Assembly (NCBI GenBank): GCA_016839515.1
Contig: JAEOUE010000211.1
Coordinates: 1-17,040, forward strand
Direction: 5' to 3'
DNA length: 17,040 bases
From: Candidatus Hodarchaeum mangrovi
GTDB lineage: Archaea > Asgardarchaeota > Heimdallarchaeia > Hodarchaeales > Hodarchaeaceae
The position numbers and the translations under genes were made by a program. The notes under the pieces were generated by a model, which worked only from the letters and a program-made list of their open reading frames with translations, was not told where the DNA came from and searched no databases. Positions 2 to 11,607 of this stretch are shown piece after piece (positions within the stretch are counted from its first letter, which is position 1; every line of letters begins with the position of its first letter).

Positions 2-274
2 ATTAGTTGTATCATAGCAATGTCATTCGCTCGGATATACTATCGTAATGCAATTAATCAAGCATTACCACTTATAATTTCTCCGGATTGCTCAAAATAT
101 ATCCGAGATAACGCTTCAAACCTTGCTAAAGAAATGATTTCAGTAGATATGAACGAAGGTAAAATTAAAATTAAAGATCAAGTTTTTTCATTCCCGAAAC
201 TCGATCATCAAGCTTTAAAAATTTTTAAAGCTGGAGGTTTAGTGAATTACACAAAAGAACGACTTAAAGAATAA
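2..274 (+). CDS. 3-isopropylmalate dehydratase / homoaconitase small subunit (LeuD/HacB family), 5'-truncated by the window edge
   Basis: Frame is open from base 2 (ISCIIAMSFARIYYRNAINQALP), matching the aconitase swivel-domain motif (A)xSFARIFYRNAIN. It ends with the typical IFKAGGLVNY. The ATG at 20 is internal. LeuD and HacB cannot be separated from this fragment. Confidence 0.9.
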   Translation: MSCIIAMSFARIYYRNAINQALPLIISPDCSKYIRDNASNLAKEMISVDMNEGKIKIKDQVFSFPKLDHQALKIFKAGGLVNYTKERLKE

Positions 275-284
275 TTAAAAGCCT

Positions 285-1925
285 TTATAGTTCAAAATCA
301 TATTTTGGTAACTTTAGATAAAATGTTGATCCTTCATTTAGTTTACTTTCCACCCATACATCCCCACCACAAGTTTCTACGATTTTCTTAACATTAGCTA
401 GGCCTATACCACTCCCTGTTATGTGTTCGGTTCTTGGATCTGAAATTCTTGTGAAAAGTCTGAATAATTTGGAGAAATCTTCTTCACGAATTCCAATTCC
501 ATTGTCAGCAACAAATAATGTGATATATTTCTCATTTTCTTCCTCTATACCAATTCTAATCTCTTTCTCGGGTTTCTCTGGATCCATAAATTTGATTGCA
601 TTATCAATTAAATTTTGAAAAACGAGAAGTAGTTGCTTTCTTACAGCATAGACTTTAGGAAGATTATCTTGAATATCTAATTTAATGTTATCTGCCTTTA
701 AACGTGGTGTAAAGGTCTTTAGAACCTCTTCTATTATTTCTATTAAAGGATAATAGCTTTTTGATTCTACAATTCTTCCTATACGAGAGTATTCAAGAAT
801 TTCCTCGATAATCTTTTCCATCCTTGTTGTATTATGCCTTATTCGCTCAAAGAACTCATTTAATTCCTCATCCAATTCCTCTTGGATTTTAGTCCGAATT
901 AAATAAGTAAATCCAGCAATTGATAGAAGAGGGGATTTTAGATCATGTGAAATCGTGTAAACAAATTCTTCCAGTTCCGATGATTTCTGAAGTAATTTTT
1001 CGTTTATTATCTTTAATTCCAGATTTGACTGCTCAAGATCGAGTGTCCTAGTTCTTACTCTGTGTTCTAATTCTTGTCTGTAATTATGAATTTCTGTATT
1101 ATTAATAAAGGCACTAAAAACTACATCTTCATCTTCTAAACGAAAAAGATCCATATTCACTAATACTGGGATAATTTGACCATCATTTCTTTTTAGCATA
1201 TACTCCTCATTTCTGATTTTGCCAGTTTTCTGAAGCTTATCTAAAATATTCTCTCGATCGGTAGGATTGATATAAAATTCTTTCACATTAACAGTTTTGA
1301 CACTATTTGCATCTAATCCCATTATATCAAGCATTGATTTGTTATACTCTAGTAAACGACCATCATATGTTGCAATACCAATACCAATTGGTACTGAATT
1401 GAAAAGAGCCTGATATCTTTCTTCACTCGATTTTAAAGCTTTTTTTGTTGTTTTTAAATCAGTTAAATCAATTATGCTTACGATTATTCGTTTTAAGCTA
1501 TTTTCAAATCCTGGAACAATTGCTGCTCTAAACAAAATTTGCAATTCTTTACCACTTAATGTATAATTAATTGCTTCGGCTTGAAAAACTTTTTTTCCGA
1601 AATAGAAAGCTAAAATTTCGTCTTTGAAGACATCATAAGTAGCCTCTCCCGTAATTGCTCCTAAGCTCCCTTTTAATTCATTTTTGGAAGGTGCTTCGAA
1701 AAGGTCAACAGCACCTCTATTTAGATCAATAATTTTTGCCATTTTAATAACATGTTCAATCTCCTCAGGATTTTCTTGAAAATATTTTTCAAATTCTTTA
1801 CGTGTCTTTTTAACAGGTAATTTGTCAAGATATTTCTTAATCTCTGAATAATCCTCTATGAATTGGCAAATTGGCGACCCCTCAAACAATAAACGGTATT
1901 GGGCCTCAAGATCATTTGCTGACAT
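285..1925 (-). CDS. Soluble PAS-domain sensor histidine kinase (2 PAS + HisKA + HATPase_c)
   Basis: H-box ISHDLKSPL, N-box NLIDNAIKF, G1 DNGIGI, F-box LFRLF and G2 GSGIGL. Two PAS/PAC blocks and a coiled-coil linker; no TM helix. ATG at 1925 is preferred over the TTG at 1940. Confidence 0.93.
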   Translation of the reverse strand: MSANDLEAQYRLLFEGSPICQFIEDYSEIKKYLDKLPVKKTRKEFEKYFQENPEEIEHVIKMAKIIDLNRGAVDLFEAPSKNELKGSLGAITGEATYDVFKDEILAFYFGKKVFQAEAINYTLSGKELQILFRAAIVPGFENSLKRIIVSIIDLTDLKTTKKALKSSEERYQALFNSVPIGIGIATYDGRLLEYNKSMLDIMGLDANSVKTVNVKEFYINPTDRENILDKLQKTGKIRNEEYMLKRNDGQIIPVLVNMDLFRLEDEDVVFSAFINNTEIHNYRQELEHRVRTRTLDLEQSNLELKIINEKLLQKSSELEEFVYTISHDLKSPLLSIAGFTYLIRTKIQEELDEELNEFFERIRHNTTRMEKIIEEILEYSRIGRIVESKSYYPLIEIIEEVLKTFTPRLKADNIKLDIQDNLPKVYAVRKQLLLVFQNLIDNAIKFMDPEKPEKEIRIGIEEENEKYITLFVADNGIGIREEDFSKLFRLFTRISDPRTEHITGSGIGLANVKKIVETCGGDVWVESKLNEGSTFYLKLPKYDFEL

Positions 1926-2100
1926 CGAAAACCAACACAATAAATTTAAAATAGTTTAGTCTAAATTCTATAAATATTTCAGCTCCTATATACGAAATAA
2001 GATTCGAATCTAGACAATAATAATTTTATAATACCAGTGAAGTATATAATCATACTTATTTCAATAACGTATGAAATAAAATCAGAGAGAGCGAACATCT

Positions 2101-2568
2101 GTGCCAATTGACAAATCAAAATTGGATGACCTTTTAGAAGAAATTAAAAGGTTAGAAGAAGAAAAATCTGATATAATACCCAAAATATCCAATATCTCTA
2201 TACAACATCGATCTATTGTCCCAAATTCCATGAAAAAAGAATACCTTCTTCGCACTGAAAAAAAGGCTTTTTTTATTATTAGTCATTATTATAAACTAAC
2301 AATGTTCTCTCTTGAAGACCCAGGTGTGGCTTTAGAAATCTGGATAAAAGGAATTTTGCCCTATCTTCTGTTAAAAAATGGATTAGACAATGAAGAATGG
2401 GAACGACTTTGTATTATTGAAGAAGAGAACGTATCAATAGCACAAGAACTCAATGACGACTGGAAAAATTTTTTTCGTAACACTATTAAGAAAGGATTAG
2501 TTGATGAAAAAGTGTTAGAACTTATTAATGAGGGAAAAGTGAAGATTGAGCGAATAAGGAGTTCTTAA
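2101..2568 (+). CDS. Hypothetical soluble protein (155 aa)
   Basis: GTG-start ORF filling the gap between two minus-strand genes. Glu/Lys-rich, protein-like composition; no recognised motif. Confidence 0.7.
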   Translation: MPIDKSKLDDLLEEIKRLEEEKSDIIPKISNISIQHRSIVPNSMKKEYLLRTEKKAFFIISHYYKLTMFSLEDPGVALEIWIKGILPYLLLKNGLDNEEWERLCIIEEENVSIAQELNDDWKNFFRNTIKKGLVDEKVLELINEGKVKIERIRSS

Positions 2569-2589
2569 TCCCATTTTGATTCGTAGATT

Positions 2590-3834
2590 CTATTGAGTAA
2601 TATCAATTAATTCATATTCGCGAGATCCGATTCCCTGAGCAACAGCTGCGGCTAACTGAGTCTCCGTAATTATTGGTCGCGACTCAGGATCTACAAATCT
2701 ACTAAAAAGTCCTAATTTTGGTTCATCGGGTTCCATTGCATCAAAAATAGGTTCAATACGACCAGAAGGCGAATCAATTCCTGTTTCTGCAGGCGACATG
2801 GGAACTCCACGCGCTTTTGTAACTTGATCAACACATGCTTGATCAATAGCTACTGGATCAGGGGAATAAAAAATTCCTTGATCAGGGACAAGAATAGACC
2901 CTCCTGCGGACATACAATCACAATGTGAAGTGATATCTATTGCAATATTAATGAAACGAATGCGATCAGGACTTATACCTTTCATAACTCCACCAGCATT
3001 ATCCATCATGCGTTCTACTTGTTCAACATTAGGAATTCGTCTTTTAGCGGCAAATACTCTTTCTTTTTCAAGATTTTTCTCGTGATGACATTTACTAAAG
3101 CACATGGTACAAGCTATGCAATTAGTTGGATCAAAAACTATTCTATTGTTCTCATCTAATGATAGACACCCATAAGGGCATATTCGTAGACAATTTCCAC
3201 AGCCTGTACAATTTTCAGGGTGTTTAACGTAAATATTTCGTCCACCACCCCAATGAGCTCCTCCTTTCCCTTCATTGCCAACACAACCTATTCCAAGCTG
3301 TTTTAATGCTCCTCCGAATCCTGCACCATCGTGGCCTTTAAATCGTGATACAATTATCACCTTATCAGCTGTTCTTAATCCCATTGCCATGGCAACGTTC
3401 TTAATATACTTTCCTTTATCATTTTGAACATGAAAGACTTCAGTTCCGACAATTCCATCTCCCATAACCACTGGTGCATTCATTGTTCCTGTACTAAATC
3501 CATGACGGTTTGCTAAATTGATAAATCCAGGACCATTTGACATAGTTAATTCAGGATTTCCTGAATCCCATCCTAAACCAACTCCTTCAACAACCCATGG
3601 AATACCACCTGCTGAATGGACTAAATCGACTATTTTTCTAATATACATAGAACGAAGATGACGAGTTTGATTCCTTGACCCGAAATGAGTTTTAATTGCC
3701 ACAATTTCTCCCTTCTTAATCCATTCTACTAATTTGACATCCGTATGATTCCATAATTTTTCAAGACGATCAATTAAAGAATCTCCCATTTTTAATTCGT
3801 TTGTATTTATCATATATACTTTTGATTTAGTCAT
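2590..3834 (-). CDS. DUF362-family Fe-S protein with inserted 2x[4Fe-4S] ferredoxin domain
   Basis: VAIKTHFG, SRFKGHDGAGFGGALKQLGIGC, DITSHCDC and SPDPVAIDQAC motifs. Ferredoxin motifs CTGCGNCLRICP and CIACTMCFSKC. Start placed at MTKSKVY (3834); upstream alternatives run to 3852. Confidence 0.88.
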   Translation of the reverse strand: MTKSKVYMINTNELKMGDSLIDRLEKLWNHTDVKLVEWIKKGEIVAIKTHFGSRNQTRHLRSMYIRKIVDLVHSAGGIPWVVEGVGLGWDSGNPELTMSNGPGFINLANRHGFSTGTMNAPVVMGDGIVGTEVFHVQNDKGKYIKNVAMAMGLRTADKVIIVSRFKGHDGAGFGGALKQLGIGCVGNEGKGGAHWGGGRNIYVKHPENCTGCGNCLRICPYGCLSLDENNRIVFDPTNCIACTMCFSKCHHEKNLEKERVFAAKRRIPNVEQVERMMDNAGGVMKGISPDRIRFINIAIDITSHCDCMSAGGSILVPDQGIFYSPDPVAIDQACVDQVTKARGVPMSPAETGIDSPSGRIEPIFDAMEPDEPKLGLFSRFVDPESRPIITETQLAAAVAQGIGSREYELIDITQ

Positions 3835-3903
3835 AATAATCATCAAATCCAATAAACGTTGAATTATTTTATTTTAGATGTTAAATAAGGTAATGATGCA
3901 TTT

Positions 3904-3915
3904 CTTATAAGTTTT
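3904..3915 (-). promoter_or_regulatory. Putative archaeal BRE/TATA element of the DUF362 gene
   Basis: Minus strand reads AAAACTTATAAG about 70 nt upstream of the start. The core AACTTATAAG recurs upstream of the 14598-15473 gene. Confidence 0.35.
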
Positions 3916-4121
3916 AATTAAAATACCCCAAGATGCATCAATTACTATTGTTAATCATTGCTATAATAAAAGAAAATAAGTGTAAAGACTCATTATTCAA
4001 TTTATCAAACTTATAAACTGCTTAATTGGTTGAAAATCTTTATAGAGTAATGATTAGTCTAATAAAATTTTTTTATTATAGATAAAAGTCTATTACTTTC
4101 TTAGAATGTAAACAAGAAGGT

Positions 4122-6302
4122 TTATTGATGAGGACTGATGACATCAATAACCTCTTGGATATCGAGGTTGAGTTCTTTCACTTTTTTTATCGATGGACAT
4201 CCTTTGGTAGTCCAACCTCTACGATTATATACAGCATCTTGAAGTTTTGAATATTGTTCTTCACGAAATGATCGAAGAATCGCCATTTTTTCTTCAGTTG
4301 TCTTTCCTTCTGGATCTATTCCGACTAGATCTTTTAACTGATCATCATATCTCTCCAAACGACTTTCATACTCTTCCTTAGTAACAGGACCCATTGCACG
4401 ATATGGAAGCTTTGAATCGTGTTCTTTTAATCCTTTCCCTTGACGAATGTTAAATATCCGTTGAAAATTATATACACGTTCAGACATCTTAACAAGATCC
4501 TCAGGAGTAGAGGCAAATCCAGTAACACCACTAAAGTATTCAGCATACCATTGAACATGTTTTGGAATTTTTGCCCGAGCATTGGGAAGAGTAAGTGGTT
4601 TCTGAGGATTTTCATTATTATCAGGAGGGATAACATCATTCCAAGGTAATTTACATAAACCATTCAAACTAAACCAAGTACGCCAAAAGGGAAACCAAGC
4701 TAAGGCTTCTGCCTTATCTTCAAAAGTAGGGAGGTTATTTCGAACCATATCTTCAAAAATTAACCATGCTTCATCATGTTGAGGCCCTTTCAATGTGAAT
4801 CCATAACCTCCTTGTTGTGCTAATGATTCTTTGGTGACGTACTCACTGAATTCCAAACCTTTATGTTCCATACCAATATCTTGTAAAAACTGGGGATCAG
4901 CTCCATATTTTTGAGCAAAAGTTTTCTTCATGGAAACAATTCCTTGTCCAACAATCACACCAAAGCCCTTATTTTGTGCCATTTGATGTATTAAATTCAT
5001 TGCTGCTTCTGCATTTCCAAATTTTAATTCTAATCCACCTGTAATATTTTCATTCAGAATACCTGCCTCGTAACATTCCATAACAAAAGCAATCCCTGTA
5101 CCAACAGATATCGTGTCTAACCCATACGTATCACAATAGAAATTAACTTCTAATACCCACTTGGGATCCCAAACTCCCCAATTACTCCCACATCCTGCTA
5201 TTGTTTCATATTCTGGTCCATCAACAATAACTTTTTGGCCTTTATAGGGACCAGTTAATACTGTATGTTGTTGTACAAAATGACTACAGGAAATTTGGCA
5301 GGCAATCCAGCATCCATCTACACCTTGCCCAACATCGGTATATATATTTCGCCATATTTCCCGTGTATAGGGAAATTTCTCTCCCTTTAATGTTTTGTGG
5401 GCTCCATATCTAAAATTTTCTGTTGGTAATAGATCAAAATCGTTCATTATTTCTGGTAGGTGTGCTGTTCCAACTACTCGCATTTCATTCTGTAACGGGT
5501 CATTTTTGATAATTTCTAGATTGTGATCCTTTCCTGCTTCTTTCCCTCGTTCAATATCTGCTGGATTATTTATTGTCTGATTGACCCGTGGACTTCTACA
5601 TATAATTGCTTTTAATTTTTTGTCTTTAAATACCGTTCCGACACCTCCACGTCCTGCTTGTTTATAAGAAGCCCACTGGCGTTTTTTGTTATACCATGAA
5701 AAGTTCAATACACCCCATTTTGTGTATTTTGCAGCTTGGCCTGATGAAACCACAGAAACACGGAATTTTTCACGATCAGACTCATCTGTGGAATATTTTT
5801 TTGTTAGTTCTTGTGTTAATAGATGAGCTTGATCCGAAAATTCTTCAGCATCCTCTATGGTAATTTTTCCATCATCACTATTGATAAAAATAAGAACTTC
5901 TTTGGTAGCTTTCCCTTGAATTTCAAGTGCATCAAAACCTGAAAACTTTAGATAAGGCCCAAAATATCCACCTACATTTGAGTCAATAGGTTGATTGGTT
6001 AATGGAGAAATTGTTGTACATATCGATTTTCCAGATCCAGAATAATAGGTAGTCCCACCAAGGGGACCTGAGGCAATACAAATCTCATTTTCAGGTTCAT
6101 TCCATTTAACTGACCTTTTGGGAAGCCCATTCCACATTAGCCATAAATCGAATCCTTTTCCTCCTGTGAATAGCTTTTTCATTTCCTCTGAAACAGGTTT
6201 AATCTTAATTTCATTAGTTGATAAATTTATATATAATGTTCTGTTCTGATAACCTCTCTCAACTGGTGTCAGATTATATTTTAACTCAGCAATAATAGTC
6301 AT
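4122..6302 (-). CDS. aor: Tungsten/molybdopterin aldehyde:ferredoxin oxidoreductase family protein (726 aa)
   Basis: N-terminal GGKG, ISPLT, DSNVGGYFGPYLKFSGFDAL and QAGRGGVG motifs. Also DGPEYET, CDTYGLDTISVG, the Fe-S ligands GCWIACQISC and GLCK, and C-terminal ERVYNFQRIFN and YNRRGW. Confidence 0.93.
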   Translation of the reverse strand: MTIIAELKYNLTPVERGYQNRTLYINLSTNEIKIKPVSEEMKKLFTGGKGFDLWLMWNGLPKRSVKWNEPENEICIASGPLGGTTYYSGSGKSICTTISPLTNQPIDSNVGGYFGPYLKFSGFDALEIQGKATKEVLIFINSDDGKITIEDAEEFSDQAHLLTQELTKKYSTDESDREKFRVSVVSSGQAAKYTKWGVLNFSWYNKKRQWASYKQAGRGGVGTVFKDKKLKAIICRSPRVNQTINNPADIERGKEAGKDHNLEIIKNDPLQNEMRVVGTAHLPEIMNDFDLLPTENFRYGAHKTLKGEKFPYTREIWRNIYTDVGQGVDGCWIACQISCSHFVQQHTVLTGPYKGQKVIVDGPEYETIAGCGSNWGVWDPKWVLEVNFYCDTYGLDTISVGTGIAFVMECYEAGILNENITGGLELKFGNAEAAMNLIHQMAQNKGFGVIVGQGIVSMKKTFAQKYGADPQFLQDIGMEHKGLEFSEYVTKESLAQQGGYGFTLKGPQHDEAWLIFEDMVRNNLPTFEDKAEALAWFPFWRTWFSLNGLCKLPWNDVIPPDNNENPQKPLTLPNARAKIPKHVQWYAEYFSGVTGFASTPEDLVKMSERVYNFQRIFNIRQGKGLKEHDSKLPYRAMGPVTKEEYESRLERYDDQLKDLVGIDPEGKTTEEKMAILRSFREEQYSKLQDAVYNRRGWTTKGCPSIKKVKELNLDIQEVIDVISPHQ

Positions 6303-6309
6303 CCAATTT

Positions 6310-6314
6310 CCTCC
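6310..6314 (-). promoter_or_regulatory. Shine-Dalgarno site of aor
   Basis: GGAGG on the minus strand, 7 nt upstream of the ATG at 6302. Confidence 0.7.
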
Positions 6315-6433
6315 ATTAAAATTTGAATCTAATTTTTCGATACCCCTTCCAAAATTTAATTTATTTTCTTTTTCATTAAATCAAACAGAATTATTTTTAT
6401 TTCAAGAAAGAATTTTTTACGAGGTTACTCATT

Positions 6434-7270
6434 TTGGGTAAAAAAGAACAATATTTTCTGGAATTACGTCCTTTATACAATAAATTCATTAGTACAGGGT
6501 CATCTCAAGAACTTTCATTGTATCTTGTAAAAAATAGCGCTCTTCCAGGACGACGTGCAAATTTAGAATTAGCAAGTGCGTTTAAAGATCTTATTGCAGA
6601 ACTTTCAATCCTAAATCCTGAAAGAACTATCCATCTCCTCTTGGATTTAATATCAAATTCTTCTGAGATAGCTCCAACAAATAATCCTAAAGAATTTCTT
6701 CCTTTTTGTGGCATTTGGGCATTAGGATCAATTGGTACCTCTTGTACTCAGTATTTTTCCAAATGTGTGCAAGTTCTGCATGAATCTTGTTCAGATGTTC
6801 GATGGCGGATTCGTGAAGCTGCAGCTAAAGGGTTATCGATGCTTTATGATACGTTTCCTCTAAAAATATACCAATTATATCTTGCGTGGATCAAACCATT
6901 AAATGAATCTCAGAAATTCCTAGTTCAGAGGGCAATTGTGGCAAGTTTAGCTGAATCATCATATTTAAATCAAGAACTACAAAGTAATCAAGCGTTTGAA
7001 CTTCATAAAATAATTATCACTTCCATTTATAACTTAGATGACGACCAAAGGAAATCAGAAGAATTTAAAACATTAAAAAAAGGATTATCTTATACTCTAA
7101 GCGTTATTGTGTACTTCAATCCCGATAAAGGATGGCCTTTTATCACAGAGACGATCAAAAAATCAGATAAAGATGTGTATTGGATCCTAAAACAGAATCT
7201 AACAAAAAATCGTTTGGTTAAAAATTTCCCAAAAGAAGTCCAAAACTGTCTGGCGATGCTAAAAGAATGA
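6434..7270 (+). CDS. HEAT/ARM-repeat protein (possibly AlkD/DNA-alkylation-repair-like fold)
   Basis: NSALPGRRANLELA, SDVRWRIREAAAKGL and WILKQNLTKNRL motifs in an all-helical protein. TTG start preceded by GAGGT at 6421-6425. Confidence 0.7.
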   Translation: MGKKEQYFLELRPLYNKFISTGSSQELSLYLVKNSALPGRRANLELASAFKDLIAELSILNPERTIHLLLDLISNSSEIAPTNNPKEFLPFCGIWALGSIGTSCTQYFSKCVQVLHESCSDVRWRIREAAAKGLSMLYDTFPLKIYQLYLAWIKPLNESQKFLVQRAIVASLAESSYLNQELQSNQAFELHKIIITSIYNLDDDQRKSEEFKTLKKGLSYTLSVIVYFNPDKGWPFITETIKKSDKDVYWILKQNLTKNRLVKNFPKEVQNCLAMLKE

Positions 7271-7275
7271 AAATC

Positions 7276-7551
7276 TTATCCACCTCCGACAGGGGGGACA
7301 CAGGTAATAACATCGCCATCTTTAACTTCTGTTTTTAATCCATTCAATGCTTCAATATCTAAACCGTTTAATAAAATGTGAAAATGGCTTTTTAAATCAC
7401 CTTTATCGGTAAGAAGATGTTCTAGAACAGATTTACCAATTTGGGTCTCAAGAGATGCCAATACTTCATAAACAGTATTTCCTTTTGTGATGAATGATTT
7501 TTTTCCAGCCCATGTTTCTAATGGACCATAAAAATTGATATTAACATTCAT
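7276..7551 (-). CDS. MoaD/ThiS/SAMP ubiquitin-like sulfur carrier
   Basis: 91 aa beta-grasp pattern (ILLNG..I..L.GL.T.VKDGDVI..PPVGGG) with C-terminal Gly-Gly; lies near aor. Confidence 0.92.
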   Translation of the reverse strand: MNVNINFYGPLETWAGKKSFITKGNTVYEVLASLETQIGKSVLEHLLTDKGDLKSHFHILLNGLDIEALNGLKTEVKDGDVITCVPPVGGG

Positions 7552-7589
7552 TAAGATACCCAGAGTCTTTTTAGATAAATAGAATTAGT

Positions 7590-8726
7590 TTAATCTGTAG
7601 TAAATTTTTGTGCAATATCCTTGGCAACATCAGTTGTGCTACTGGTCCCACCCATATCATATGTCTTAATCTTTCCTTCTTTGATATTTTGTGAGATCGC
7701 CATTTCTAATTTATCAGCTAATTCTGTTTCTCCTAACCATTCCCACATTAATCCCATGGATTTTAGTGCAGCGATTGGATTTACTTTATTCTGGCCAGCA
7801 TATTTAGGAGCTGATCCATGATTGGGCTCAAAAACTCCAAAATCATTTGATGTTGAAGCTGAGGCAGCAAAGCCTAATCCACCTGTTAACATTGCTGCTT
7901 GATCAGTAATAATGTCTCCAAACATATTTGTAGAGACAATCACTGAATATTCCTCAGGTCTTTTCATTAGCCACATAGCTGTTGCATCAATATTTTCATC
8001 CCACCACTTTACTTCAGGGTACTCTTCTGCTACTTTTTTTGCTATCTCTAGAAACATTCCATCAGTTGCTCTAATAACATTAGCTTTATGGACTACAGTA
8101 ACCTTATTTCTTTTTGTAATCTCTGCATATTCGAAAGCTTTCCGAATTATCCGTTCACATCCATTTCGAGTGAAAACACGACAACTTATTCTAATATCTG
8201 AATCTTCAGCACCAGTACGGTGTTGAAATTCTTTAAATTTTGGTAATACTTTTAATTCAGGAATTAAACTATCAAATTCAATCCCCGAATACAATCCTTC
8301 TGTATTTTCTCTGAAAGTTACGATGTCAATCATCGGTATAGATCCATCTATTTTTCGGAAATTTAAAGGGTTTCCTTCATAGCTTTTTGATGGACGCATA
8401 TTTGAGTAGAGATCAAAAATTTGGCGAAGTCTTACTATTGGTGATCTGTAAATGGTCCCATATTTTCTTTCGATTCGTTGAACATCTGGATCTGTACGAG
8501 GTTTACTTGTTATCGCACCAAAGAATGCTGCATCACATTCTTTCAATCCCTCTATCGTACGTTCGGGAAGAGGTTCACCTTCCTTTTCAAATATTGTAAA
8601 TCCAATGTCTAAAGGGATTATTTCAGCATTGAAATCTGATACATCTAGAACAACCTTTGCTGCTGCCAAAACATCAACACCGATTCCATCCCCAGGCATA
8701 AATGCAATTTTATACTTTCTGGTCAT
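7590..8726 (-). CDS. Isocitrate/homoisocitrate/isopropylmalate dehydrogenase family enzyme
   Basis: PGDGIG, RLRQIFDLYSNMRP, RENTEGLY, VHKANVI, NMFGDIITD and FEPNHGSAPKYAG motifs. ATG at 8726 follows a GAGG site; alternative start at 8741. Confidence 0.93.
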   Translation of the reverse strand: MTRKYKIAFMPGDGIGVDVLAAAKVVLDVSDFNAEIIPLDIGFTIFEKEGEPLPERTIEGLKECDAAFFGAITSKPRTDPDVQRIERKYGTIYRSPIVRLRQIFDLYSNMRPSKSYEGNPLNFRKIDGSIPMIDIVTFRENTEGLYSGIEFDSLIPELKVLPKFKEFQHRTGAEDSDIRISCRVFTRNGCERIIRKAFEYAEITKRNKVTVVHKANVIRATDGMFLEIAKKVAEEYPEVKWWDENIDATAMWLMKRPEEYSVIVSTNMFGDIITDQAAMLTGGLGFAASASTSNDFGVFEPNHGSAPKYAGQNKVNPIAALKSMGLMWEWLGETELADKLEMAISQNIKEGKIKTYDMGGTSSTTDVAKDIAQKFTTD

Positions 8727-8747
8727 TAATTTCTTCCTCATGTTTAA

Positions 8748-9311
8748 TTATTTAAGGCCTAAATGACTACGTAATGTACCATAATATATGAAATCAGCTC
8801 TATGAATGATTTGAGCTTCTTTACTCCTATAGAGTTCATCACCTTCGTGTGCATGAGCTAGAATAATATGACATATTTCATCAGGGAGTCCATGTTGTTT
8901 TGCTACCATTGCTCCATAAGCAGGATGACGAAATTGCCTAAATATTTCAGTGTCTCGAGTAAAAGAAGTCTCTTTTTCCTTTGATTCAGCAAGCTTGCCA
9001 ACATCATGTAGTAATCCTCCAATAATAAGAAAATCATAATTAATAGGAATGTTCATAGCTTCTTCAAACATTTGTGCTACCGATAACGCAATTTTAGTAA
9101 CCCAATAGGTGTGATGAGCTAATGTATATCGTGCATCGAATTGCATATTTAAAGTAAAAGGCATTTCCCAATTATCCCACCCCTTACCTCCATTTCCGTT
9201 TTCCATTAGATCTAAAATAATCAATTTTGCCTTTGATACTAATAACTGATCCTTTACTTGAGCTAATAATGTACCAAACTTTTCTTCAATATAAGATTCC
9301 TTTTTTTCCAT
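8748..9311 (-). CDS. HD-domain (HDIG-type) metal-dependent phosphohydrolase
   Basis: Complete H...HD...H...H...D ligand set: LAHHT, GGLLHDVGK, FRHPAYG, IILAHAHEG, IHRADF. Confidence 0.9.
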   Translation of the reverse strand: MEKKESYIEEKFGTLLAQVKDQLLVSKAKLIILDLMENGNGGKGWDNWEMPFTLNMQFDARYTLAHHTYWVTKIALSVAQMFEEAMNIPINYDFLIIGGLLHDVGKLAESKEKETSFTRDTEIFRQFRHPAYGAMVAKQHGLPDEICHIILAHAHEGDELYRSKEAQIIHRADFIYYGTLRSHLGLK

Positions 9312-9506
9312 ATTGATCTTAACCCTATAGATGATATTCCATACTAATCATCCTTTGCATCTGAAAAACTCTAAATTTAGAAATGAAAATAAAATTTTTT
9401 CATAATCGATGTTCATTGATTTGTTGATAGATTTTTACAAAAGTTTATGTTATGTTCTCCTTTTTTATCAGTTAACTCAATGATCATGAAAGAGAGGTTT
9501 TTAATT

Positions 9507-11051
9507 ATGCATATTAATGCTGTAGGTCGAAAAGTTCCTGGTATTCTTTTTGAGCGAGAATATAACCCTTATAAAGGAGCTTATGCAACTAATCCTATGG
9601 GATTCAAACAAGGAAGGAAATTTGCTTCTACAATTACCACTCCTATTAAGAAACGTATATTCGACGATCTAGAAGGTCTTATCCACGAAATTAAATTACA
9701 AGACGGAATGACAATAAGTTTTCATCATTGTCTTCGATATGGTGATCTTGTTATTAATCACATAATGGATACAATAGCAACAATGAGTCTTAAGAACCTT
9801 ACATTAGCAGCTACGGCTTTATTTCCAAACCATGAACCTCTTATTGAACATATACATTCAGGTGTCATTGGTGCCATTAGTGGTTCGATGAATGGACCTA
9901 TTGGTCAAGCTGTCTCAACAGGAGAAATAAATATTCCTACAAGTTTGAGGAGTCATGGAGGACGTGCACGAGCTGTTGAATATGGAGAATTACATTTAAA
10001 TATTGCGTTCATTGCAGCCTCAGCGGTTGATATTATTACAGGAAATATGAATGGGGTTCAAGGTCCCTCTGCATTTGGTGCAAATGGTTTTGCGAATGAT
10101 ACAGATTCTGTGTATGCGGATTGTGTCGTTCTAGTTACAGATAACCTTACTGAAGAACCTGTATATCCTGTAAGTATTCAAGGTTCAAATGTTGATTATA
10201 TATTGACAATAGATAAAATAGGTGATCCTAAAAAAATTATAGCTGGTAGCTTAGCTCAAAATGTAACAGAATCTCACTTGAAGATTGCAGAACAAGTCAT
10301 TGATATAGCGAAAGCTGCTGGTTATGTGAAAAATGGATTTAGTTTCCAAGCAGGGGCAGGCGGAGTAAGTTTGGCGACAACACAATTTTTACGAGAGATA
10401 ATGGCAGAAGAAAAAATAGAGGGTAGTTTTGTTCATGGGGGGACTACAAAAGCGGCGGTTGATTTACTCGAAGATGATCTTTTCCGTTGTATCTACGATG
10501 GACAAAGTTTCGACTTGGATGCCATAAAATCGCTAAGAGATAATCCAAGACACATTGAAAGTAGTGCACATAATAGCTATAATATTTGGGCGCCTGGAGG
10601 CCCTTTGGCAAACCATGTTGATGTAGTAGCACTTGGAGCAACCGAAGTGGATGTTGATTTCAACGTGAATGTCAATACTCATTCTGATGGCCTTCTCCTT
10701 CATGGAATAGGAGGACATACAGATGCAGCAGCTGCACGTTTAACCATTATTACTGTTCCATTAGCTCGTAAAAGTCCAATTATTCTTGATAAGGTAACCA
10801 CGATTTCCACACCTTCAGAATTAATAGATGTAATTGTAACTGATAATGGTATTGCTGTTAATCCCCGAAGAAAGGATTTGATCAAGCAATTAGAAAAAGC
10901 TGGAATACCTGTAAGGTCGATTAACGATTTACGTGATGAGGCTTATAGTCTTGCGTCTCCTATGGAACCAGAATTTACTGATAAAATCGTGACAGCTGTT
11001 GAATATCGTGATGGAACTCTTCTTGATGTTGTTTATCAGGTTAATACGTAA
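9507..11051 (+). CDS. citF: Citrate lyase alpha subunit / citrate CoA-transferase
   Basis: INAVGR N-terminus, DGMTISFHH, RSHGGRARA, FSFQAGAGG, GATEVDVDFNVNV, GIGGHTDAA, DVIVTDNGIAVNPRR and EYRDGTLLDVV motifs. ATG at 9507 follows GAGGT (9494-9498), giving 514 aa. Confidence 0.93.
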   Translation: MHINAVGRKVPGILFEREYNPYKGAYATNPMGFKQGRKFASTITTPIKKRIFDDLEGLIHEIKLQDGMTISFHHCLRYGDLVINHIMDTIATMSLKNLTLAATALFPNHEPLIEHIHSGVIGAISGSMNGPIGQAVSTGEINIPTSLRSHGGRARAVEYGELHLNIAFIAASAVDIITGNMNGVQGPSAFGANGFANDTDSVYADCVVLVTDNLTEEPVYPVSIQGSNVDYILTIDKIGDPKKIIAGSLAQNVTESHLKIAEQVIDIAKAAGYVKNGFSFQAGAGGVSLATTQFLREIMAEEKIEGSFVHGGTTKAAVDLLEDDLFRCIYDGQSFDLDAIKSLRDNPRHIESSAHNSYNIWAPGGPLANHVDVVALGATEVDVDFNVNVNTHSDGLLLHGIGGHTDAAAARLTIITVPLARKSPIILDKVTTISTPSELIDVIVTDNGIAVNPRRKDLIKQLEKAGIPVRSINDLRDEAYSLASPMEPEFTDKIVTAVEYRDGTLLDVVYQVNT

Positions 11052-11078
11052 TTTTTCGAAAATTTTTATTCAGGACAT

Positions 11079-11432
11079 CTATGAGCTTCGCTTAATTTTA
11101 TCAGAAAATAATTCTAAGGCAATCACAAATAACCTGGTCTGTAATATATAAAGAATTAAAGAAATGAATCCAAGCACAGCTGAAATTTTTCCAATCTCTG
11201 AAAATGAAAAGCCCATAGAAGACAAATTTGGTATTAAAAATGCCCCTTGGAGCACAAAAAGATAAAAAAGTACTCAGATTATTGACAAAAATTCACCAAT
11301 ACCTATTAATAGAAAACCATTATGTCTAGTTTGCTGATATGAAAATATTGCAACTAAAAGAATAAGCAACCCTAATCCTAATGAAACAAAAAGATGAATA
11401 TTTGTTGTTATAAAATCTAATAATGGAACTAT
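11079..11432 (-). pseudogene. Interrupted small multi-TM membrane protein gene (ATA start, in-frame TGA at codon 53)
   Basis: Manual translation gives IVPLLDFITTNIHLFVSLGLGLLILLVAIFSYQQTRHNGFLLIGIGEFLSII*VLFYLFVLQGAFLIPNLSSMGFSFSEIGKISAVLGFISLILYILQTRLFVIALELFSDKIKRSS*. SD-like GGTGGA lies just upstream. It fills an otherwise empty 556-bp gap. Confidence 0.7.
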
Positions 11433-11607
11433 TTATTTCCACCAGTATAATTATAAAATCCTCATTTAATTATTTTCAGTTTTTAGAATATATACAAATT
11501 GCTACCTGTCTTTAAAGCATGATTACTATTGAAAATTTGTATAATCTACCATTTTTTTACTTAAAATACTTCTATCACTGTTTTAGCATTAGACCATCAA
11601 GCAAATT

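Follow-up and report, generated by a model that had tools for sequence, protein, structure and literature searches.

What might an Asgard archaeon do with a LeuD-type hydratase subunit, a beta-decarboxylating dehydrogenase of the isocitrate/isopropylmalate family (Iso_dh), a small HD-domain protein and a citrate lyase alpha subunit (CitF), all encoded within 11 kb? The question is raised by a contig of 17,040 bp from Candidatus Hodarchaeum mangrovi (JAEOUE010000211.1, assembly GCA_016839515.1; our C156), which we analyzed whole and call the window. It belongs to a metagenome-assembled genome (MAG) of 4.0 Mb in 348 contigs with 91% completeness. A sequence-only reading of this DNA had proposed that the four genes form a noncanonical tricarboxylate pathway ending in the cleavage of a citryl thioester. 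On balance, we think it probable that the window carries part of an uncharacterized tricarboxylate module that is widespread and whose Hodarchaeota copy is dispersed, for which a cleavage mechanism can be predicted. Going by gene identity, the parts of the module are two putative LeuCD-type Fe-S hydro-lyases, an NADP-type dehydrogenase, a small HD metalloprotein, and a thioester-handling enzyme, which here would be CitF. What is observed directly are the identities of these genes, the absence of certain partner genes, and the clustering of the same gene types in many phyla.

All four genes lie where they had been placed from the letters alone, according to the ORF listing and the Pfam/NCBIfam scans, which covered 18 ORFs (Table 1). 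The HD and dehydrogenase genes are co-oriented, with 6 nt between them. The 195-bp divergent gap between HD and citF holds if citF starts at the ATG at 9507; counted from the first ATG (9447), the gap would be 135 bp. The start at 9507 is the most likely one, as judged from a preceding GAGAGG and from the resulting N terminus (MHINAVGRKVP), which fits the consensus of nine CitF homologs. As had also been claimed, no further leucine or lysine biosynthesis gene is found among the scanned ORFs.

The evidence that carries our explanation comes from the neighborhoods of HD homologs in other phyla. An alignment of ten HD proteins gave 391 relatives among at least 600 pattern matches in contigs representing one genome per species. 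The best 80 loci, of which 78 are non-Hodarchaeota, were kept and searched by tblastn with labeled reference proteins. Because many loci end at contig ends, the counts of partner genes at these 78 loci are lower bounds. A cleavage-type gene, that is, citryl-CoA lyase (CCL), CitD/E/F, or a homolog of citryl-CoA synthetase (CCS) or ATP-citrate lyase (ACL), is present at 52 of them, a LeuC/D-type gene at 49, the module type of dehydrogenase at 21, and all three partner types at 19. CitF is found at 22 loci, 15 of which also have CitE or CitD, and six have CCL but no CitE/CitD. The lyase or transferase component is the most faithful neighbor of HD. Arrangements that recur are CCS-like beta/alpha-CCL-HD-LeuC1D1-dehydrogenase-LeuC2D2 (Aminicenantes, Eubacteriales, and others), HD-LeuC2D2-LeuC1D1-dehydrogenase-CitDEF (Synergistota), HD-CitF-CCL-LeuC2D2 (Thermoplasmatota), CitE-CitF-HD-LeuC1D1 (Bipolaricaulota, Thermotogota), and HD-ACL-like (Methanobacteriota, Thermoplasmata). 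Recurrent clustering of HD, dehydrogenase, and CitF homologs with leuC/D-like, citD, and citE genes, which the sequence-only reading had anticipated, is thus found across many phyla.

Closer to home, we surveyed 83 genomes of the class, including 21 relatives in the genus (g1), 31 genomes of the family f4, 12 of the family f7, and the family f6. In f4, which is another Heimdall family, the order HD-dehydrogenase-LeuC2-LeuD2 is seen in all seven loci examined, and in six of these it goes on with LeuC1D1, as a fusion, and with ACL-like beta and alpha genes (one locus stops at a contig end). CitF is absent from all 31 f4 genomes. No other aconitase-type gene was found in f4 (the best E-values are all LeuC-like), nor any other Iso_dh gene at E <= 1e-20 with the window dehydrogenase as query, and the only citrate-synthase-family matches are to the 713-aa ACL-like subunit; 30 of 31 genomes have a separate SucC-like gene. 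In the genus, the dehydrogenase comes right after HD in nine of the ten dehydrogenase-bearing loci, and the tenth (G055) has an overlapping HD-like ORF. The LeuD gene had been regarded as the weakest link of the proposed pathway, owing to its distance of 7 kb from the dehydrogenase. That judgment was wrong: with its place in the f4 operon and LeuC/D-type genes at 49 of the 78 loci, LeuD belongs to the conserved core, and its link is the best conserved of all.

The LeuD gene is also less isolated than the window suggests. The start of the window overlaps the reverse-complement end of contig C135 (L015 1-3648) by 127 bp inside LeuD1, and the two LeuD frames agree, with 42 identical aa. Because of this overlap the two contigs can be joined, which brings two LeuCD pairs, divergently oriented, to the upstream edge of the window: C135 carries the remaining part of LeuD1, LeuC1, and the divergent LeuC2-LeuD2 pair. 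The complete genome G057 shows the same order (LeuD2-LeuC2 <> LeuC1-LeuD1 ... DUF362, aldehyde:ferredoxin oxidoreductase [AFOR], ThiS-like, dehydrogenase, HD). LeuC1 passes the models for the archaeal LeuCD/HacAB subfamily (NF001614, 519.6 vs. a cut-off of 385; TIGR02086, 490.7 vs. 410), and LeuD2 passes the archaeal LeuD subfamily model (TIGR02087, 118.1 vs. 108.95), to which the truncated LeuD1 fragment in the window alone scores 65.6 bits. The small-subunit specificity loops read RYTYDP in LeuD1 and KHLHIT in LeuD2; the references have RYLVY (3vba), PYLRT (2pkp), and RYNLT (1v7l). Neither loop fits that of isopropylmalate isomerase (IPMI; YLVY) or of homoaconitase (HACN; YLRT). Both are conserved across phyla, as GKYTY in LeuD1 and HN..LHI in LeuD2.

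The dehydrogenase is similarly atypical and falls under the cut-off of every NCBIfam equivalog model. Its best match is AksF2 (NF040626; 332.1 vs. 540), with lower scores for LEU3_arch (305 vs. 410), homoisocitrate dehydrogenase (NF040619; 302 vs. 500), LeuB (NF002898, 269 vs. 393; TIGR00169, 214.1 vs. 353.2), and isocitrate dehydrogenase (IDH; at best NF006529, 268.8 vs. 510; TIGR00183, 193.3 vs. 567.3). The substrate helix is YRSPIVRLRQ, compared with YRSVNVTLRQ in the NAD-dependent IDH 6lky and GAIRYLRR in the homoisocitrate dehydrogenase (HICDH) of Thermus. The cofactor loop (HGSAPKYAGQ) has APKYAG where aligned NAD enzymes have APDIAG. A lysine-tyrosine pair in this loop is the mark of NADP use in Escherichia coli IDH, and the earlier label of an NADP-type enzyme is supported by the replacement of D-I by K-Y. 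The motifs Y.SPIV[RK]LRQ and HGSAPKY are conserved in 43 module-type dehydrogenases from many phyla. A dehydrogenase located inside an operon of homocitrate synthase (HCS), LeuC, and LeuD in another genome (G045) shares the S-P-I of the helix (YRSPIIQLRQ) and has the APDIAG loop.

In a quick tree of the Iso_dh family, the module, LeuB-like, and HICDH-context enzymes are split from the canonical IDHs and from an IDH-like type with an S-x-N helix (98% SH-aLRT), and the module dehydrogenases form one group (88%). The tree was made without bootstrap and its single HICDH-context row sits on a long branch; because the groups were defined by motif, the clustering is descriptive. Canonical IDHs keep RSLNV, and the only other Iso_dh gene of this genome (on contig C313), together with its bacterial relatives, keeps the S-x-N pattern as ES[AC]NV. 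This unusual clade (C313, L014 4387-5580; L184-L189) combines ES[AC]NV with HGS..[RK]MV and lies under all IDH equivalog cut-offs. It is common to Hodarchaeota and module-bearing bacteria of the Aminicenantes and Eubacteriales type, at 61-67% identity, and in Hodarchaeota the gene comes after that for ACL alpha.

The thioester-handling part of the proposal concerns CitF, which passes the citrate lyase alpha-subunit equivalog (TIGR01584) and is present in 18 of the 21 genus relatives. Its usual partners are missing: the CitE family (PF03328) and the CitD family (PF06857) have no matches in this genome, and tblastn with f7 CitE, CitD, and CitX gives none (CitC and CitG were not searched for). 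CitE was found in none of the 21 genus relatives either; in f7, it is found in nine of 12 genomes. This genome has a second CitF (contig C175), 50% identical to that of the window and divergent to a stand-alone CCL (NF004869; 288.6 vs. a cut-off of 212). The second CitF adjoins CCL in G000, G049, G048, and G054, and in G065, G062, G057, and G055 it adjoins a 713-aa ACL-like alpha subunit and a beta subunit. The 51 CitF proteins placed in a quick maximum-likelihood tree include 13 rows of the window type and eight of the second copy; these form two sister clades (100% SH-aLRT), separate both from every CitDE-linked CitF and from the CCL-linked clade of Thermoplasmatota. By this topology, a CitF that has lost its carrier and is paired with a citrate-synthase-fold lyase appears to have evolved at least twice. 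Considering its sequence and the gene content of the genome, we describe the window CitF as a predicted carrier-free CoA-transferase that has lost the CitD carrier and the CitE lyase. It probably passes citryl-CoA on to a lyase with the citrate-synthase fold whose gene is elsewhere in the genome, rather than to CitE. Of the original proposal for thioester cleavage, the identity of CitF stands. In G042, a member of f6, HD is found together with a CitF of 46% identity and a fragment of LeuC inside 5 kb, and neither CitE nor CitD was seen in the locus (L065); this CitF groups on the tree with CitF from Zixibacteria.

HD is predicted to be a small HD-domain metalloprotein and is the marker gene of the module. 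It has the fold with H...HD...H...D ligands of metal-dependent phosphohydrolases (PF01966 and alignment); among 65 homologs, H67, D103, H129, H153, and D173 are invariant, and H102 is nearly so. The structure model has a pLDDT of 94.7, and its best match in the PDB is the HD domain of YhaM (TMq 0.64). All matches are to generic HD folds (SAMHD1, YfbR, Ddi2, and others have TMq <=0.48), and the protein atlas returns just clusters of "HD domain-containing protein" for it.

If the module genes carried out ordinary leucine or lysine synthesis, the genome should be expected to show the rest of those pathways, and separate true leuA/B/C/D genes were sought accordingly. None of the LeuA type was found, and the only LeuB- and LeuCD-like genes are the window dehydrogenase and the two LeuCD pairs themselves, so that the module has no separate LeuB or LeuCD beside it. 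HMGL-like synthases (LeuA, CimA, HCS) are absent from this genome, occur in only four of the 21 genus relatives (the 17 without them include genomes that are 96-99% complete), and are absent from all 31 f4 genomes. LysX scores 107.7 against a cut-off of 275.6; it passes in six of 83 genomes, all in f6, and in none of the 21 genus relatives. KARI_C is found in 17 of 83 genomes, and its only strong match adjoins the one LeuA-like gene of G051. With no LeuA/HCS, true LysX, or citrate synthase found (tblastn detects no full-length citrate synthase in this genome), canonical leucine or lysine synthesis is unlikely, and the suggestion that the module genes fall outside those pathways is supported. 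Two specific candidates were tried and rejected: leucine/isoleucine synthesis as the main reading, given that there is no HMGL-like gene and KARI_C is patchy, and lysine synthesis by the alpha-aminoadipate (AAA) pathway for the genus, given that LysX passes its cut-off in f6 alone. Contig C314 (3488-4949) carries two tandem KARI-like genes (KARI_C, 62 and 48 bits), and the same tandem is present in G057, G062, and G067. Four saccharopine-dehydrogenase-like genes are also present, and the NCBIfam names for them and their neighbors are uninformative as to lysine catabolism to 2-oxoadipate.

How might such a module work? What follows, from the individual reactions and their direction to the substrate and a possible part for HD, is offered as a prediction from gene content. 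The dehydrogenase would carry out the NADPH-dependent reductive carboxylation of a 2-oxo-dicarboxylate to a hydroxy-tricarboxylate, which the two hydro-lyases would isomerize via a cis-ene acid. CitF would then move CoA from acetyl-CoA onto the tricarboxylate, releasing acetate, and the citrate-synthase-fold citryl-CoA lyase on C175 would split the thioester into acetyl-CoA and a 2-oxoacid two carbons shorter than the tricarboxylate. The cleavage direction would be favored by a transferase plus lyase system, given the citrate lyase equilibrium.

Several observations weigh against this explanation as a whole. Contamination of the MAG is 6%. In just four genus genomes (G000, G063, G050, and G059) does CitF lie next to HD in divergent orientation, and the two are separated by 22 kb in G052 and by 87 kb in G055. 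A window-type dehydrogenase stands alone among ribosomal-type genes in f7, and 17 of the 78 HD loci have no partner gene, although contig ends truncate many of the loci. In addition, the genome already has ACL, the S-x-N IDH-like gene, a fused aconitase, and AcnA, for which reason a second citrate route looks redundant. The claimed link between HD and CitF is to be read in two parts, in that it recurs across phyla and that adjacency within the genus is not fixed. The module of this genome is spread over ~30 kb, with a duplicated carrier-free CitF and a coexisting, complete canonical citrate set.

That citrate set can be described from the rest of the genome. There are two Iso_dh genes only, and the one on C313 is next to an ACL alpha-type gene and near the fused aconitase; a typical ACL alpha fragment lies on C313/C246. 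The aconitase superfamily is represented by four loci (AcnA, the fused aconitase, LeuC1D1, and LeuC2D2). No CCS or f4-type ACL pair was detected, as the best tblastn matches, on C141, are 29-34% identical and look like succinyl-CoA synthetase. The f7 genomes keep a full IDH-aconitase-CitD-CitE-CitF-CitX operon. Those represented by L030-L034 and L067-L070 have two CitDEF loci each, one in the operon with IDH, fused aconitase, and CitX, and the other followed by two genes of ~600-650 aa.

For the substrate, the series from 2-oxoglutarate through isocitrate and citrate to oxaloacetate is our first choice, at a confidence that falls a little short of even. All partner families are citrate enzymes, and CitF is paired with AcnA in five genus genomes (G048, G052, G053, and G054, as well as G051 by coordinates), both of which suggest citrate. 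The f4 operon fits this role too, being the only set of aconitase, Iso_dh, and citrate-synthase-family genes found there. Two properties of the dehydrogenase weigh against citrate. At Ser113 and Asn115 (E. coli numbering), which we take to be the substrate-helix sites of IDH, the serine is kept and the asparagine position holds isoleucine, and on the tree the enzyme is separated from both IDH clades and groups with LeuB/HICDH. Overall, the residues leave the chain length of the substrate undecided, because the IDH/aconitase references and those for IPMI/HACN are equally unlike the dehydrogenase helix and the LeuD loops in not matching them. A substrate outside both the citrate and the homocitrate series seems to us unlikely, though by no means negligible.

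The alternative that survives best is tentative, and we hold it to be possible rather than probable: the same enzymes would act one carbon longer, on 2-oxoadipate, homoisocitrate, and homocitrate, with 2-oxoglutarate as the product. Here 2-oxoadipate, CO2, and NADPH would give homoisocitrate and then homocitrate, each hydro-lyase taking one half of the isomerization, and either CoA-transferase plus lyase or the ACL-like enzyme would yield an acetyl unit together with 2-oxoglutarate; the opposite direction is conceivable as well. The module's coexistence in the genus with a separate citrate set would fit this, as would the helix and tree position just described, the S-P-I match to the dehydrogenase of the bona fide HCS-LeuC-LeuD operon of G045, and the fact that the best NCBIfam match is to a homoisocitrate dehydrogenase model (332 bits for AksF2, compared with 269 for the best IDH model). 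Among 18 module-bearing bacterial genomes, six also have the S-x-N IDH-like gene and one a canonical IDH (six matches were left out). In the AAA pathway of Thermus and fungi the isomerization is split between two enzymes, which the two hydro-lyases of the module recall. However, the lower part of the AAA pathway is lacking, with LysX passing in none of the genus relatives and its sole f4 match (1/31) below the cut-off, no HCS was found, and among the LysX and saccharopine-dehydrogenase contexts there is no sink or source for 2-oxoadipate. The LeuD loops (YTYD, HLHI) are unlike those of homoaconitase (YLRT in 2pkp, YNLT in 1v7l, YNIT in the G045 operon), and both the CitF-AcnA pairing and the f4 operon, with its separate SucC-like gene in 30 of 31 genomes, point to citrate. 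The terms "homocitryl-CoA" and "homocitrate lyase" are absent from the literature searched. A bolder version, which we regard as rather unlikely, is a reverse homocitrate route in Hodarchaeota and many anaerobic bacteria and archaea, parallel to the canonical citrate set, in which HD would catalyze a novel reaction of either the 2-oxoacid or the thioester.

Less probable still is that two separate systems happen to meet in the window, CitF acting on citrate with the C175 lyase and AcnA, and HD, the dehydrogenase, and LeuCD serving elsewhere, with adjacency a product of local rearrangement. The small number of genus genomes in which HD and CitF adjoin is in keeping with this, and in five others an inverted block puts CitF ~8.5 kb from HD; CitF has its pairing with AcnA; and f4 has the HD-dehydrogenase-LeuCD operon with no CitF at all. 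This idea must nevertheless contend with the 22 of 78 loci outside the class at which CitF shares a cluster with HD, with Synergistota and WOR-3 loci that carry CitF, HD, LeuCD, and the dehydrogenase together (e.g., L082, L090, L105, L108, L128, and L146), and with G042, in which the genes lie close together in another family. Also, where CitF is missing, CCL, CCS, or an ACL-like enzyme substitutes next to HD.

Ordinary amino-acid biosynthesis, in which a LeuB/HICDH and isopropylmalate or homoaconitate isomerases would have lost their LeuA/HCS to an incomplete MAG, is very improbable: it could draw on the 91% completeness, on the lack of other LeuB- and LeuCD-like genes, and on an IlvD/Edd-family gene that is present with the two weak KARI-like genes, but HMGL-like genes are missing from near-complete relatives and from f4 too, the K-Y loop replaces the D-I of NAD enzymes, all LeuB, HICDH, and AksF equivalogs are below cut-off, the small-subunit loops match neither IPMI nor HACN, and in Synergistota a distinct LeuB of the NAD type, adjoining LeuC, is present on top of the module (such a LeuB is found in five of the 18 module-bearing bacterial genomes, and four have the module enzyme only).

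The tricarboxylate module that we favor can be compared with three known systems. Bacterial citrate lyase, CitDEF (EC 4.1.3.6; partial activities EC 2.8.3.10 and 4.1.3.34), shares with it the CitF that passes TIGR01584. The f7 relatives retain the complete operon of that system, whereas the genus is without CitE, this genome is without the CitD carrier, and the Hodarchaeota CitF forms a duplicated clade of its own. With a citrate-synthase-fold lyase as its likely partner, CitF would work through intermediates that are free CoA thioesters, unlike those of CitDEF. In Hydrogenobacter thermophilus, citrate is cleaved in two steps by the citryl-CoA synthetase CcsAB and the citryl-CoA lyase Ccl. The stand-alone CCL beside the second CitF resembles this system and ACL, and HD and LeuCD have CCS-like genes with CCL, or an ACL-like pair, as neighbors in f4 and at many bacterial loci. 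The differences are that a CoA-transferase takes the place of the ATP-dependent synthetase here, that LeuCD/LeuB-like enzymes replace aconitase/IDH, and that HD is added. With 2-oxoacid elongation (LeuCD/LeuB, or HacAB/HICDH in the form of AksDEF or LysT/U plus Hicdh) the module shares folds and subfamilies, but it has no HMGL-type synthase, has an NADP-type loop and unlike specificity loops, and is clustered with lyases, not synthases. What we appear to have is the logic of citrate cleavage and 2-oxoacid elongation in unusual versions of the enzymes, here scattered and with a CitF that is duplicated and carrier-free. Neither the module nor a pairing of CitF and CCL was found described in the literature searched, with supplements not opened, and the portion of PMC11976288 that was consulted does not treat the module genes.

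Table 1. Features of the window, with strand and model matches
Feature	Position	Strand	Match or remark
LeuD-type small subunit (LeuD1), C-terminal 90 aa (3' end)	2-274	+	TIGR02087, E 4e-18
PAS histidine kinase	285-1940	-	
DUF362 / 4Fe-4S protein	2590-3852	-	
Aldehyde:ferredoxin oxidoreductase (AFOR), tungsten enzyme	4122-6302	-	
ThiS/MoaD/SAMP-like small protein	7276-7551	-	PF02597, E 8.9e-12; NF041918, 57.8 bits (cut-off 60)
Iso_dh-family NADP-type beta-decarboxylating dehydrogenase, 383 aa	7590-8741	-	PF00180, E 3.8e-85
HD/HDIG protein, 187 aa	8748-9311	-	PF01966, 49.9 bits (cut-off 22)
AT-rich divergent intergenic region, HD/citF	9312-9506		195 bp if citF start = 9507
citF	9507-11051 (ORF open from 9447)	+	TIGR01584, 515.2 bits (cut-off 501.45); PF04223, E 1.6e-139
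DinB, SDR epimerase, Hsp20, TrkA-type channel	beyond 11051		

The remaining genes of the window differ in how closely they follow the module. The block of DUF362/4Fe-4S, AFOR, and MoaD/SAMP-like genes (2590-7551) between LeuD1 and the dehydrogenase is kept throughout the genus, and in a Synergistales locus (L108) an AFOR gene (50% identity) adjoins the CitDEF-HD-LeuCD cluster. The ThiS-like gene is directly downstream of the dehydrogenase in nine of the ten dehydrogenase-bearing genus loci and two genes further on in G052; in the tblastn searches of HD loci, none adjoined the module in genomes from outside the genus. Its membership of the module is doubtful, and it may serve the neighboring AFOR instead. 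In G057, a 163-aa gene replaces the PAS histidine kinase between LeuD1 and DUF362; because it is not at that position there, the kinase looks like a local insertion. On the other side of citF, a stretch of ~550 bp (11052-11607) has no ORF of at least 80 aa. Genus relatives have a CinA-like and a 345-aa gene between CitF and DinB, and homologs of both are on contig C30 of this genome.

This genome thus holds two CitF genes, ACL, and the module, yet citrate synthase, CitE, and CitD were not found in it. Its genes raise questions of enzymology, namely whether CitF can work with free CoA and a citrate-synthase-fold lyase, and what the ever-present HD protein does. If our explanation is right, genes to which annotation routinely gives the names leuB, leuC, and leuD, in Asgard archaea as in many uncultured anaerobes, would not be for amino-acid biosynthesis. 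They would instead form a branch of central carbon metabolism that connects a 2-oxoacid to an acetyl unit, and this would bear on how metabolism is reconstructed for the archaea most closely related to eukaryotes.

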